From an uncultured Planctomycetota bacterium (GTDB lineage Bacteria > Planctomycetota > J058): 59,460 bases of DNA. Position 1 is the stretch's first letter. The number at the start of each line of letters is the position of its first letter. Below are positions 27,618-31,085 of this stretch, in pieces. Location of the stretch: contig CAZMSZ010000001.1 in the NCBI GenBank assembly GCA_964569055.1, positions 1 through 59,460 on the forward strand, written 5' to 3'. The position numbers and the translations under genes were made by a program. The notes under the pieces were generated by a model, which was given only the letters and a program-made list of their open reading frames with translations, was not told where the DNA came from and did no database searches.

Positions 27618-30600
27618 GTGCCTGGCGACTTCTCACGCCCGCCGCGGATCGATGCCCGCAAGGGGTACTTCGGCCTCTATGCTCAGCAGGGGCGCGTCCA
27701 ACTCGACACGGACTGGAACGGGCAAGCGGACGCGCTCACCCGGTGGATCACGGCGCTCACGGCTGACCTGCTCGGTCCATCGGGCGGCTCGGCGGCGAGC
27801 GCGGGGTTCGACATCGTCCCGGGCGTGATGGCCGACCTCGCCGCCGGCGGGGCGCGCGCCGACGTGCAGAACGCGGCGGGCCTCGACTTCGGGCCGCGCG
27901 CGGCGTTCTCGGTCGAGAGCGTGGTGTGGGTGCGCGCGGACGCGCGCGGCGGGTCGATCGCGTGGTGCGCCAGCCAGACCCTCGGCTCGGGGTACGAGCT
28001 GTCGATCGACGAGGAGCGGGCGCCGGTGTTCCGCTTTCAGGACGTGGTGTGCCGCGCCGCGCCCCTGCGCCCCGACGACTACGTGCACCTGATCGCGACC
28101 TGGGACGGGCAGCGCGCCAGCCTGTTCGTCGACGGGGCGCTGGCCGCGACGGCCTCACCGCGGACGGAGCCCCTCGGCCCCCCGGGCCCCCCCCAGATCG
28201 CCACTGGAGGCCGCTCGCGCTCGGGGGCGCAGCCGCGGGCGGAGCCGCTCGCCCGCTCCGGTGCCGCGCCCCGTCCTGGCTTAAGCGCCACCCGGAGCGA
28301 GGGCCCACGGGCGCAGTTCGCGCTCGGCGGTGGCACGGGCGCCTTCGGGGTCGGGCTCGTCTGGGTGCGGGTGTGGCGGGGAGACCGCGCACCCCGCCGC
28401 GGTCGACTCGAGCCCAGTTGGGGCGAGGACGTCGGTCTGGTGGGGGAGTGGCAGCTCGCCCGCGCCGACGGCCACACCGTACCGGACAGCTCGGGGCACG
28501 GACGCACCGCGCTGCTCGACGGAGCCGGCGAACCGTTCTCGCCGCGCCGCAGCGCGCAAGACCTGCTGATCGGGCGGGGCCGCTACTACGTCGGCGGCTA
28601 CTTGGCCGAGAACGAGCGCACGGTCGCGTTCGGCGACCAGCCGTTCGTGCCGGGCGGCGATCGGGCGCAGAGCTGCCAGGAGCGCGGGGTGCGCCTGGTC
28701 TACCTCGACGTCTGGCAGCGAGAGGTCGACGGCAACGAAGACCCGGACCTGCTCGACCCCGCGCTCGGGGGGCTCGACACCACCGTCGCCCGGCAGCTCG
28801 TGTGGCAGGTCAAGGAGCTGCCGCCGCTACGTCCTCGCGACCGGATCCTCGAGGAGCTGGAGCAGGCCGAGGCGGAGCCCGAGGCGGAGCGGCGCCTGCT
28901 CGACCACCTGGGCGACCGCCTCTATCAACAATGGCGAGACCTCGTGCTGTGGCGCAACGAGAAGCTGCGGCTCCGCGCGCGGCGCTCTCTGAACGCGCTC
29001 GGCGCGCTCGGCAACTGCCTGTACCGCATCCAGGTTCGCTCGCCCGGAGGGGCGGTGTGGACGGGGAGCGCGCTGGAGGAGTTGGCGTACACGGCCGTCG
29101 TGGCGTCCGTGGAGGAGGACGAGGTCGTCACGCTCGAGGACTGGGGCGCGCTCGACGTCGGCTGGCCCGTCGGGCAGCTCGTCCAGGTCCTGCCGACGGG
29201 CACGGGTGGGGGTCAGGAGGCCGCGACGCCGTTCCTCGCCACGATCGTGAGCTCCGACCGAGGCTCGCGGCAGGTCGGCCTCGACCTCGGCGGGCAGCCC
29301 ACGGCCGTCGAGGTCGGCGATCGTCTGCGACGGGTGGCGACCTTCGTCTGGTCGCGCTCGAACGCGGTGCAGTGCTACTCGATCGAGGCGGCGGCAGGCG
29401 CGACCGCGGTCCTGCGCGCCTGCCCCACCACGCGGCTGCGCGAGCTCTCGCGAGGCGACTGGCTGAGCCTCGAGACCGAGCGCACCCTGCTGCGGCTGGA
29501 GCAGCCCGGCCTCTACCGGGTAGTGGACATGTCCGCCGACGGGCGGACGGTCACGCTCGACCCGCCGCTGCCGGCGGACGTCTCGGCGGCGGACTCGCGG
29601 CTGCCCCTGCTTCGCCTGTGGGATCAGCGCGACGAGGGCCGGGGCGACCTGATCGTGGAAGCCGGGCGGTGGATCGAGCTGGAGTCCGGCGTGGAGGTGT
29701 GGTTCGACGGCTGTGGTCAACTGGAGTCGGGCGACTTCTGGACGTTCAGCTCCCGGACCGCCACCGGCGGCGTCGAGTGGCCCACGCAGGACAGAGTCCC
29801 CAGCCTGGAGGAGCCCGCGGGGGTCCACGACCACCTGGCGCCGCTCGCGCTCACCTGGACCGGCCGACGAGGGATCCGCGCGCTCGACCTGCGGCGGCTG
29901 TTCACGCCGCTGGCCGACGCGCCAGGAGAGCGTCAGTCCGAGGCCTTCCTCCAGTTGTCGCTGCGGCGGGAGTCGCCGCCCGGCTACAGGTTCGCCGACC
30001 TGACGTTGAGGGCAGAGCGGAGCGACCCCGACTGGCGCGCGGCTCCGGCCCTCCCTCCCGAGGCCGGCGACCTGGGCGAGACACAGGCCGTGGCGGTGGA
30101 CGGGCGCGTGTTCCTGTTCTCCGAGCTCGGGTCCGTGTGGATGCTCGACCTGCAGCGTGGCCGCTGGTTCCCGCGCTCGCCCATCCAGCCGGCGCGCGTG
30201 CGACGCAGCGGCTTCGGGGTCGCGCGCGTCGCGAACGAGGTCCACGTCCTCGGCGGCCACGACCACCGAGGTGAGCTCCTGGCCGATCACTGCGTGTACG
30301 ACACGACGACCGACACGTGGACGCGCGGGGCCGACATCCCCGAACCGCGCGCCTACGCGGGGGTCGCCGCGACGGAGCCCTTCGTCTACCTGATCGGGGG
30401 CCGCGTGCACCACGCCCTGGAGGGGAACCGCACCGTCGCCACCTGCCACGTGTACGATGCCCGTCACGGCCGGTGGCACCCCATCCGACCGCTCGGCCAG
30501 CCACGCTGTCACCTGTCCGCGATCGCCTTGCACGGGCGGATCTACGCCGTCGGCGGGGCCCACGAGGGGGACGTGACTGGGCGCCTCGAGGTGCTCGACC

Positions 30601-31085
30601 CAGCGGCCGCGGACCGCGGCTGGGTCGAGCTGACGGCCATGCCGCTGCCCCGCCAGCTCGCGGGCGCCGCCGCCCTAGAGGGCCTGTTGCACGTAGTCGG
30701 GGGGGTGACCTCCGAGGCCGCGACCGCCGCTCACTCGGGCTACGACCCCACGACCGACACCTGGTACGACCTCGCGGAGCTCTACGGGCCCCGCTTCGCA
30801 TTCGGGCTCGCGGAGTGGGATGGGGCGCTGCTGGCAGTCGCCGGCAAGTCGGCGGACGCCTCGCTCCTGAGCGCGGAGACGTTCGGGCTCGTCGAGCGCC
30901 TCTACGTGCACCGCGCCGAGCCGGGCCCGCGTCCAGCGGGCGGACCGAGGCGGGCGCCCCCTGGCGTGCGGAGGGTCGCGCGCTGGCTCGACGCCGACGA
31001 CCTGCTGGCGCGATTGGCGGCGGACGTCTCGCCGCCCGGCTCGCGCCCGCCACGCCGCCAGGATCCGGGGCCGGAGCGGGAGTAG
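27618..31085 (+). CDS. DUF6519-like N-terminus / LamG-like lectin domain / C-terminal Kelch beta-propeller protein (tail-fibre position)
   Basis: GTG at 27618. The N-terminus is PGDFSRPPRIDARKGYFGLYAQQGRVQLDTDWNGQ. LamG-type blocks: FSVESVVWVRAD, DDYVHLIATWDGQRASLFVDGALAA, VWVRVW. Kelch-like blades: VDGRVFLF, NEVHVLGGHD...VYDTTTDTWT, PFVYLIGGR...VYDARHGRWH, HGRIYAVGG, GLLHVVGG...YDPTTDTWY. Confidence 0.75.
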   Translation: MPGDFSRPPRIDARKGYFGLYAQQGRVQLDTDWNGQADALTRWITALTADLLGPSGGSAASAGFDIVPGVMADLAAGGARADVQNAAGLDFGPRAAFSVESVVWVRADARGGSIAWCASQTLGSGYELSIDEERAPVFRFQDVVCRAAPLRPDDYVHLIATWDGQRASLFVDGALAATASPRTEPLGPPGPPQIATGGRSRSGAQPRAEPLARSGAAPRPGLSATRSEGPRAQFALGGGTGAFGVGLVWVRVWRGDRAPRRGRLEPSWGEDVGLVGEWQLARADGHTVPDSSGHGRTALLDGAGEPFSPRRSAQDLLIGRGRYYVGGYLAENERTVAFGDQPFVPGGDRAQSCQERGVRLVYLDVWQREVDGNEDPDLLDPALGGLDTTVARQLVWQVKELPPLRPRDRILEELEQAEAEPEAERRLLDHLGDRLYQQWRDLVLWRNEKLRLRARRSLNALGALGNCLYRIQVRSPGGAVWTGSALEELAYTAVVASVEEDEVVTLEDWGALDVGWPVGQLVQVLPTGTGGGQEAATPFLATIVSSDRGSRQVGLDLGGQPTAVEVGDRLRRVATFVWSRSNAVQCYSIEAAAGATAVLRACPTTRLRELSRGDWLSLETERTLLRLEQPGLYRVVDMSADGRTVTLDPPLPADVSAADSRLPLLRLWDQRDEGRGDLIVEAGRWIELESGVEVWFDGCGQLESGDFWTFSSRTATGGVEWPTQDRVPSLEEPAGVHDHLAPLALTWTGRRGIRALDLRRLFTPLADAPGERQSEAFLQLSLRRESPPGYRFADLTLRAERSDPDWRAAPALPPEAGDLGETQAVAVDGRVFLFSELGSVWMLDLQRGRWFPRSPIQPARVRRSGFGVARVANEVHVLGGHDHRGELLADHCVYDTTTDTWTRGADIPEPRAYAGVAATEPFVYLIGGRVHHALEGNRTVATCHVYDARHGRWHPIRPLGQPRCHLSAIALHGRIYAVGGAHEGDVTGRLEVLDPAAADRGWVELTAMPLPRQLAGAAALEGLLHVVGGVTSEAATAAHSGYDPTTDTWYDLAELYGPRFAFGLAEWDGALLAVAGKSADASLLSAETFGLVERLYVHRAEPGPRPAGGPRRAPPGVRRVARWLDADDLLARLAADVSPPGSRPPRRQDPGPERE

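Follow-up and report, generated by a model that had tools for sequence, protein, structure and literature searches.

The stretch of DNA analysed here (the window: 59,460 nucleotides, contig CAZMSZ010000001.1) carries a gene cluster for a contractile injection system (CIS). We describe one gene of this cluster, at 27618-31085 on the forward strand, whose product of 1155 amino acids (aa) combines a DUF6519 core with a LamG domain and a Kelch beta-propeller. The gene follows directly on the genes of the putative baseplate wedge, and its product is a candidate for the specificity determinant of the system.

Gene and Domain Content

The window has a G+C content of about 74% and thus opens long open reading frames (ORFs) in every frame, the off-frame ones being composition artefacts; because of this, the real genes were told apart by the G+C content at the third codon position (GC3), which for the ORF at 27618-31085 equals 0.92 and marks it as the true coding frame. 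The upstream gene stops at 27604, in agreement with the GTG start at 27618, and the choice of start is backed by the N-terminus, since MPGDFSR aligns from residue 1 of our protein with position 1 of the DUF6519 family consensus (MKGDFSR...QQGRVQLDADWNEQ). An identical 1155-aa protein was also called on an independent public (Logan) contig. The original prediction, made from the letters of the window alone, had given the same 1155-aa ORF, and all of the motif strings that it quoted were found in the translation. The gene and its parts are as follows (positions of the window, strand, description).

27618..31085, +, whole gene of the 1155-aa DUF6519 (eBAP5)/LamG/Kelch protein; GTG start, stop codon 31083-31085 (ORF listing, GC3, Pfam matches)
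27618..27821, +, DUF6519 core segment A, residues 1-68; conserved N-terminus MPGDFSR...QQGRVQLDTDWN and a long helix (30-52)
27822..28544, +, LamG/concanavalin-like insertion with flanking linkers, residues 69-309 (Laminin_G_3, Foldseek, homologue mapping)
28164..28313, +, Pro/Gly/Ala/Arg-rich low-complexity loop within LamG, residues 183-232; specific to this protein
28545..28823, +, DUF6519 core segment B, residues 310-402; GRYYVGG...VYLDVWQREV, conserved in all homologues
28824..29333, +, expanded variable B-C spacer, residues 403-572; long helix 421-447 and beta strands in the model
29334..29918, +, DUF6519 core segment C, residues 573-767; top-scoring Pfam stretch, conserved in all homologues
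30087..30911, +, C-terminal Kelch beta-propeller, residues ~824-1098 (Kelch Pfam families, PDB propellers, repeat profile)
30918..31082, +, Pro/Arg-rich C-terminal tail, residues 1101-1155; specific to this protein

DUF6519 (PF20129) has been described as eBAP5, one of five predicted N-terminal baseplate-anchor domains of the tail fibres of extracellular contractile injection systems (eCIS) (PMC12923769). The three domains named in the original prediction were all recovered by hidden Markov model (HMM) searches with scores over the Pfam cut-offs: DUF6519 with 103.6 bits (gathering cut-off 22.4, E 1.4e-29) in three stretches, Laminin_G_3 with 34.4 bits (cut-off 27.6, E 3e-8) at residues 91-202, and Kelch_1 with 69.1 bits (E 2.2e-19), accompanied by matches to Kelch_6, Kelch_3, Kelch_2 and Kelch_4. 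The NCBIfam scan of the protein gave nothing over its cut-offs, and neither the adenovirus-fibre family nor any other fibre family of Pfam matched it. A sequence search of the PDB returned the Kelch part only (residues 854-1065, E 1.8e-39), with natural and designed six-bladed propellers as the best matches (KLHL, KEAP1 and the designed SAKe proteins).

Anatomy of the Protein

The anatomy was mapped by phmmer against 119 homologues, nearly all of which align their residues 1-67 with segment A. This segment contains the invariant residues Q23, Q24, G25, R26, D30, D32 and N34, segment B contains G321, G327 and L363, and segment C contains W668, W708 and R713, while the DUF6519 core as a whole has 17 invariant columns. 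The highest-scoring Pfam stretch (residues 573-735) covers positions 317-498 of the DUF6519 profile. Within the subfamily that shares the DUF6519+LamG+Kelch composition, identity amounts to 39-58% in segment A and 38-52% in segment B; it is 17-31% in the LamG region and 20-32% in the spacer between B and C, which spans about 170 residues here versus about 50-70 in homologues that consist of the core only.

LamG is not a second distal binding module: the LamG region is an insert of about 240 residues inside the N-terminal anchor, between segments A and B, where typical homologues have only about 10-30 residues. The AlphaFold2 model of residues 1-791 has a mean predicted local distance difference test (pLDDT) of 78 and a predicted template modelling score (pTM) of 0.80, with low confidence at residues 1-8, 192-227, 481-489 and 778-791. 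When this model was compared with the PDB by Foldseek, a probability of 1.0 was obtained for CBM66, perlecan LG3, agrin G2 and laminin LG domains, and likewise for the pentraxin PTX3, PAPP-A LG and sialidase lectin domains, so that the LamG fold of this region is confirmed at the level of the predicted model.

The low-complexity loop that was said to interrupt LamG is real and in frame. Its residues 183-232 (P10 G8 A8 R7 per 50 residues) make it about 30 residues longer than the corresponding part of the homologues, which have about 17-24 residues there, and pLDDT is below 50 at residues 192-227, that is, the loop is disordered in the model. A frameshift or an assembly error as its origin was considered and rejected, as the stretch is in frame and the other two frames, one of which contains a stop, show no homology.

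The Kelch propeller is an addition C-terminal to segment C. A repeat HMM, built from the four clear blades, finds strong repeats at residues 865-913, 913-963, 965-1012 and 1014-1062, and a degenerate repeat on either side of them. Five or six blades had been predicted, of which four canonical ones are borne out and the flanking two are recognisable only in degenerate form; since the homologues carry six repeats, a propeller of six blades is likely. The tail that follows (residues 1101-1155, with P12 and R11 of 55 residues) is almost unaligned in 13 members of the subfamily.

The Injection System Operon

The genes at 7020-36278 form a single cluster on the forward strand, and the families recognised within 7020-34023 are those of a CIS: sheath, gp19-type tube, Pvc16_N cap, CIS_tube, a spike with a VgrG OB domain, gp25, the wedge and an AAA ATPase. 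No capsid or terminase family was found among the window ORFs scanned, and cellular genes lie on both sides of the cluster (rnc, mfd, acs, nhaA and kinases); it is a chromosomal CIS locus and not a prophage. The other genes are, in order along the cluster:

7020-9797, +, 925-aa sheath, first gene of the cluster (Pfam)
after the sheath, gp19-type tube (Pfam)
after the tube, baseplate-hub-like gene (Pfam, PHROGs)
11065-13857, +, uncertain Ala/Pro/Gly/Arg-rich stretch, no family match, between the baseplate-hub-like and Pvc16_N genes
before CIS_tube, Pvc16_N gene (Pfam)
before the spike, CIS_tube gene (Pfam)
before the DUF4280-like gene, spike with Phage_base_V (Pfam)
before gp25, small DUF4280-like protein (weak Pfam match)
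18762..19148, +, gp25-like wedge/sheath initiator (GPW_gp25, E 5.8e-15), first of the block gp25-805-J-I-DUF6519
19156..21573, +, 805-aa second J-like wedge paralogue (phrog_219 'baseplate wedge subunit', E 1.8e-19), conserved in related loci
21570..25541, +, 1323-aa J-like wedge protein (PDB 9gtp 'Baseplate protein J-like', E 2.6e-7; phrog_219, phrog_6; weak Baseplate_J match in Pfam)
25538..27604, +, 688-aa Tail_P2_I/Mu gp48-like wedge protein, the predicted docking partner (Pfam matches of homologues)
31191-31544 and 31638-32015, +, two small genes of 117 and 125 aa between the DUF6519 gene and the AAA ATPase, no family match
after these, +, AAA ATPase with winged helix (Pfam)
after the AAA ATPase, two further genes, no family match

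The gene of interest thus stands behind gp25 (W), the 805-aa J', the 1323-aa J and the 688-aa I-like gene, and because of this W-J'-J-I-X order it occupies, by analogy, the place of the tail-fibre gene H in phage P2. Nine of 19 homologues of the 688-aa protein match Tail_P2_I (best E 2e-6) and Phage_Mu_Gp48, and its orthologue in the locus of a Polyangiaceae genome gives a weak Tail_P2_I match. In this lineage, a separate gene seems to serve each of the two J positions of a P2/pyocin-type wedge, and a large I-like protein comes next. As alternative fibres, the proteins of 805 and 1323 aa were considered and rejected, both being J-like wedge subunits, and no second fibre candidate was recognised in the window.

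Downstream of the DUF6519 gene, the 117-, 125-, 241- and 487-aa proteins gave no family matches in the Pfam and PHROG scans, and tblastn found the 117- and 125-aa genes in none of the related loci compared, except for one that is the same sequence on another contig; their products could be an assembly factor or cargo. The sheath is far longer than usual, with the sheath Pfam families matching its last ~200 residues only and the first 660 residues unmatched. The stretch at 11065-13857 has about 930 codons, a G+C content of 0.79 and repeats such as VVGAPRAVGRAPVVA, and its gene call is uncertain; the product may be a tape-measure-like or a disordered protein. Two genes of the flanks encode fusions. 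Just downstream of the cluster, at 36571-38700 (-), a 709-aa protein unites a GNAT acetyltransferase with a SET domain and a Rubisco LSMT substrate-binding domain, an uncommon arrangement in bacteria. The gene at 1344-2834 (+), in the upstream flank, links a Ser/Thr protein kinase with an FGE-sulfatase (formylglycine-generating enzyme-like) domain.

The DUF6519 Family and Its LamG-Kelch Subfamily

A word-indexed search with residues 1-791 gave 217 homologues, the nearest of which (35% identical) belongs to a metagenome-assembled genome (MAG) of Polyangiaceae, and an exhaustive search over 1.84 billion representatives revealed no relative above 38-39% identity, the best being 38% identical over the whole protein. 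With no close relatives, variability was judged at the deep level of the family only, where no recent C-terminal swaps can be compared. The loci of the closest homologues are syntenic with ours, and in two of them the DUF6519 gene is the end of the operon. A scan of species-representative genomes gave at least 554 DUF6519 loci; of the best-matching 80 GTDB representative loci, which were compared by tblastn, about 75 have the block gp25-805-J-I immediately in front of DUF6519, with hosts that range from Streptomyces to a Methanosarcinales archaeon, and this suggests that the baseplate operon of this CIS lineage constantly includes DUF6519.

About half of the listed homologues have 400-550 aa and no Pfam domain beyond DUF6519; most Streptomyces copies, with about 470-540 aa, have no space for a large added module. 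The family is therefore no less a core baseplate subunit than a fibre. Among 31 members, the additions were Kelch (10), Laminin_G_3 (7), DUF4815 (4), Big_1 (3), GH25 (1), a BNR propeller (1) and TonB_C (1), or none, and Beta_helix is present in other DUF6519 members; the family is built of a conserved N-terminal core and exchangeable C-terminal modules. Among 30 scanned genome loci (L005-L084), the end of one member is a GH25 muramidase and that of another is TonB_C; such ends are a hint that the targets of some systems in the lineage lie in the cell wall or the envelope.

The 149 best-scoring representatives of the exhaustive search (clusters at 50% identity) were scanned again for domains, and the core was found in 91, core and Kelch in 80, and core, LamG and Kelch in 67 (median length 1133 aa). 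DUF6519+LamG+Kelch is, judged by these domain matches, a recurrent and established subfamily of at least 67 clusters at 50% identity in several phyla; its hosts include Chloroflexota, Myxococcota (with the cultured Vitiosangium), Microcystis, Acidobacteriota and Longimicrobiaceae, among others. Proteins with LamG nearly always have Kelch as well (19 of 19 in one set, 67 of 72 in another). When 415 core columns were used for neighbour joining, a crude method on p-distances, all 22 Kelch carriers fell into one split of 34 of the 192 leaves, and because they share this split, the result fits a gain of Kelch that happened once or a few times. In the Kelch subfamily the mean identity is 44% for the core, 28% for LamG and 30% for Kelch, with both additions below the core in each of the 91 pairs compared.

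One member of this subfamily, of 1150 aa, comes from a cultured cyanobacterium, Microcystis sp. T1-4 (L012, NZ_CAIP01000092.1), in which the CIS genes are rearranged, the AAA ATPase being upstream on the opposite strand, and the sheath, tube, hub-like and Pvc16_N genes downstream; this strain is a possible experimental model. The cultured Vitiosangium sp. GDMCC 1.1324 (L007) encodes a related protein with DUF6519 and Kelch. The nearest named relatives of the Mfd protein of the window (39928-43500, +) are from Planctomycetota MAGs (59-61% identity) and the nearest DUF6519 homologue is from Polyangiaceae (35%), and since these relatives differ, horizontal spread of the CIS locus is suggested.

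Fold of the Core

As LamG matches dominated the results of the fold search with the 1-791 model, we modelled a homologue that consists of the core only, P0015 of Streptomyces (pLDDT 91.6, pTM 0.89). The nearest solved structures found by Foldseek were baseplate chains of phage 812 (E 8e-6), with weaker matches to the receptor-binding proteins (RBPs) of the lactococcal phages p2 and 1358, to TssK (5y0e and 6giy, E 0.025-0.2 and a probability of only 0.07-0.41) and to the Anabaena baseplate 7b5h of a thylakoid-anchored CIS (tCIS). Among predicted viral structures, the nearest was a 'tail protein / putative RBP' of a Lactobacillus phage (E 2.4e-7), with tail-fibre, VrlC-like and DUF4815 proteins next in rank. 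The theme of these matches is that of peripheral baseplate and receptor-binding proteins, which falls short of proof of homology.

Proposed Role and Alternative Explanations

We consider it reasonably probable that the 1155-aa protein is a peripheral baseplate protein of the receptor-binding type, in a CIS with a wedge similar to those of phage P2, R-pyocins and the type VI secretion system (T6SS). The DUF6519 core (segments A, B and C) would be the anchor and, by analogy with TssK on TssG and with the tripods of phage 812, would probably form a trimer that docks on the upstream Tail_P2_I-like 688-aa wedge protein. In one subfamily, two ligand-binding folds, as a rule inherited as a pair, seem to have been added to this core, namely a LamG/concanavalin-like lectin domain near the N-terminal anchor and a probably six-bladed Kelch propeller at the distal C-terminus. 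As part of the particle, the two folds would most likely contact a glycan or a protein on the surface to which the system attaches, and this contact would set the target specificity and relay the firing signal to the wedge. The idea of a candidate specificity determinant next to the baseplate, put forward in the original prediction, gains support from the position behind the wedge genes, the modularity of the family, the divergence of the additions in all 91 pairs, a phage fibre with a Kelch tip (phiERICV, see below) and the eBAP5 class to which the core belongs by its sequence.

Several points weigh against this interpretation. The 688-aa protein itself has no Pfam or PHROG match, so that its Tail_P2_I label rests on homologues, and PDB searches with it, as a single sequence and as a profile, gave no match. 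A profile of 111 DUF6519 sequences likewise found no meaningful match in the PDB, which holds no solved DUF6519 structure; the structural matches of the core are weak (TM-scores 0.1-0.28), and the phage 812 chains at the top of the list (9eui_Q, 9euj_G and 9euf_0) could not be assigned to named proteins. The position of LamG beside the anchor, as mapped on the homologues, is unusual for a receptor-binding module, which would be expected at the distal end. Since roughly half of the listed homologues are core-only, the basic role of the family may be structural rather than receptor binding, and the faster divergence of LamG and Kelch could come from relaxed constraint rather than from adaptation. 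We found no experiment on any DUF6519 protein, the class being defined computationally only, and CISs of another lineage, in Streptomyces, act inside the cell (PMC10066040, PMC12237407).

The main competing explanation is that DUF6519 is a structural wedge subunit equivalent to TssK, and that LamG and Kelch stabilise the baseplate or contact other subunits or the sheath with no role in specificity. It would explain why about 75 of 80 loci have the gene in this one place whether or not extra domains are present, why about half of the listed homologues manage with a core of 400-550 aa, and why LamG is inserted beside the anchor segments; the joint occurrence of LamG and Kelch (19/19; 67/72) would fit a structural pair within one molecule or between subunits, and the fold matches to TssK and to the tCIS baseplate, weak as they are, point the same way. 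However, the C-terminal additions vary widely (Kelch, DUF4815, Big_1, GH25, BNR, beta-helix), as they do in receptor-binding proteins but not in fixed structural parts, and diverge faster than the core in 91/91 pairs. Ligand binding is the classic task of the LamG and Kelch folds, and a phage has a Kelch fibre tip in the same gene position. We therefore regard a purely structural role as unlikely.

A related explanation, which we hold to be quite unlikely, gives the additional domains a sensory task: DUF6519 would be no fibre but the TssK-like third wedge component of a widespread CIS lineage with two J-like paralogues and a large I-like protein, and, in the subfamily described here, the usually joint LamG and Kelch would make of it a two-site sensor by which the system, in a possibly planctomycete-like host, could be tethered or triggered on the envelope or on internal structures of its own producer instead of on foreign cells.

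It seems improbable that the CIS works inside its producer altogether, as the CIS of Streptomyces and the thylakoid-anchored CIS of cyanobacteria do, with LamG and Kelch tethering the baseplate to the cell's own membrane protein or envelope glycan. Cytoplasmic and membrane-anchored systems of this kind are documented (PMC10066040, PMC12237407), the core weakly matches the fold of the Anabaena tCIS baseplate 7b5h, the scan of the cluster genes revealed no lysis cassette, and the host is possibly planctomycete-like, judged by the Planctomycetota MAGs (59-61%) that are nearest in Mfd. On the other hand, no transmembrane or membrane-anchor feature was seen in the 1155-aa protein, and the same architecture is found in very different cells (Chloroflexota, Myxococcota, Microcystis, Acidobacteriota). 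Variable distal modules would also suit varied external targets better than a conserved internal anchor, and the published classification treats such systems as extracellular (PMC12923769).

An enzymatic Kelch part (NanM-like sugar mutarotase or galactose-oxidase-like domain) that modifies or degrades a surface glycan in the manner of a tailspike depolymerase is highly improbable: it is suggested by weak matches to Pfam NANM (26.9 bits) and to the NCBIfam N-acetylneuraminate epimerase families, by the GH25 muramidase and beta-helix domains of other family members and by the label 'galactose oxidase' that related phage Kelch proteins bear in some databases, but the scores are far under the cut-offs (26.9 vs 45 in Pfam; 19.8 vs 416 in NCBIfam), the top matches are to generic Kelch repeats such as those in protein-binding propellers (KLHL, KEAP1, designed SAKe), and no catalytic motif was found, without a search aimed at one.

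The protein is of interest since target recognition by CISs outside the Afp/PVC group is largely unexplained, and the locus adds a clear and well-delimited eBAP5 example with a recurrent sub-architecture, a lectin-type domain being set into the anchor core and a Kelch propeller forming its cap. The boundaries determined here, which place the LamG insertion between residues 68 and 310 of the core and the Kelch junction from 767 to ~824, can serve for module swaps, for expression of the binding domains and for tests of anchor docking on the Tail_P2_I-like protein. The picture given by the 2026 catalogue of eCIS fibres (PMC12923769) is unchanged, with two refinements suggested: DUF6519 is constant in the baseplate operon of its lineage, and LamG and Kelch are a linked pair in one subfamily.

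Comparison with Known Systems

The antifeeding prophage (Afp) of Serratia and the Photorhabdus virulence cassette (PVC) carry Afp13 and Pvc13, which likewise follow the CIS wedge genes and are presumed to set target specificity. The 1155-aa protein has no similarity to them and is a globular multi-domain protein, not an elongated fibre; moreover, the Afp/PVC wedge consists of Afp11/Afp12 without a Tail_P2_I gene, whereas the wedge of the present lineage has J, J' and an I-like protein. By its Pfam and wedge content, the locus shows none of the Afp13/Pvc13-type characters (the eBAP1 helical-bundle anchor, the adenovirus-fibre-like shaft or knob, and the Afp11/Afp12 wedge). The original prediction had expected an Afp13/Pvc13-type fibre at this place and thought it replaced, but there is no such fibre to expect, because the P2/pyocin-type wedge of this lineage carries DUF6519 there, in about 75 of 80 genomes. 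The CIS of Streptomyces coelicolor, which belongs to another lineage, has a wedge of two Cis11 and one Cis12 like that of pyocin R2, has no fibres, and acts in the cytoplasm (PMC10066040, PMC12237407).

Another parallel is offered by gpH of phage P2 and by the fibre of R-type pyocins, which are attached via gpI (Tail_P2_I): the gene order W(gp25)-J-I-fibre is that of the window locus, with the difference that the latter has two distinct J-like paralogues. When 50,697 phage genomes were searched by tblastn, no DUF6519 was found and only the Kelch part gave matches. Among Kelch-containing phage proteins, ERICV_05142 of the Paenibacillus phage phiERICV (598 aa) consists of a Phage_tail_fib (PF12571) N-terminus and six Kelch repeats, and its gene follows directly on a Tail_P2_I gene in the order V-U-W-J-I-fibre. 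The Kelch part is 28% identical to the propeller of the window; the anchor, however, is Phage_tail_fib and not DUF6519, and the I-like protein has 187 aa versus 688 aa in our locus. Thus a P2-type fibre whose distal module is a Kelch propeller already exists in a bona fide phage.

TssK, the 'shoulder' domains of lactococcal phage RBPs and the tripods of phage 812 are likewise peripheral, in baseplates whose wedge has two J/TssF-like proteins and one I/TssG-like protein. The fold matches of the DUF6519 core to these proteins are weak (TM 0.1-0.2, with a probability of 0.14-0.41 for TssK). TssK trimers dock onto TssG loops. TssK differs in that it has no sequence similarity to DUF6519 and binds the membrane complex of the T6SS, not the target cell. 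In phage 812, the trimeric tripod proteins grip docking loops of the arm scaffold protein (PMC13433997).

The nearest known class is eBAP5 itself, with 658 genes that are mostly actinobacterial (Nachmias, Wang, Feng, Jiang, Levy, Nat Commun 2026, PMC12923769). Loci of eBAP3 and eBAP5 have Tail_P2_I-type adaptors and largely lack Afp12, and multimer modelling predicts that the eBAP5 domain binds to the upstream Tail_P2_I-like protein; the authors state that no solved structures validate the prediction of the eBAP anchors (PMC12923769). The eBAP5 fibres described there have macroglobulin-like shafts, pectin-lyase beta-helices, lectins and haemagglutinin-like ends (PMC12923769). The main text makes no mention of Kelch or LamG, and in the accessible part of its supplement the sole DUF6519+Kelch gene carries DUF6519 in truncated form (residues 1-137), while Laminin_G_3 has no entry (PMC12923769). 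In the literature covered, we found no description of the DUF6519+LamG+Kelch subfamily. On the evidence of sequence and gene order, the 1155-aa protein is a divergent new member of this published class, so far only computationally defined: it shares with it the position directly after a Tail_P2_I-like gene in a CIS operon without an Afp12-type gene, the extra inserted beta-rich regions and the variable C-terminal module of the binding type, and it departs from the class as described in that LamG is inserted into the anchor region and in that the host, by the relatives of its Mfd, is non-actinobacterial.

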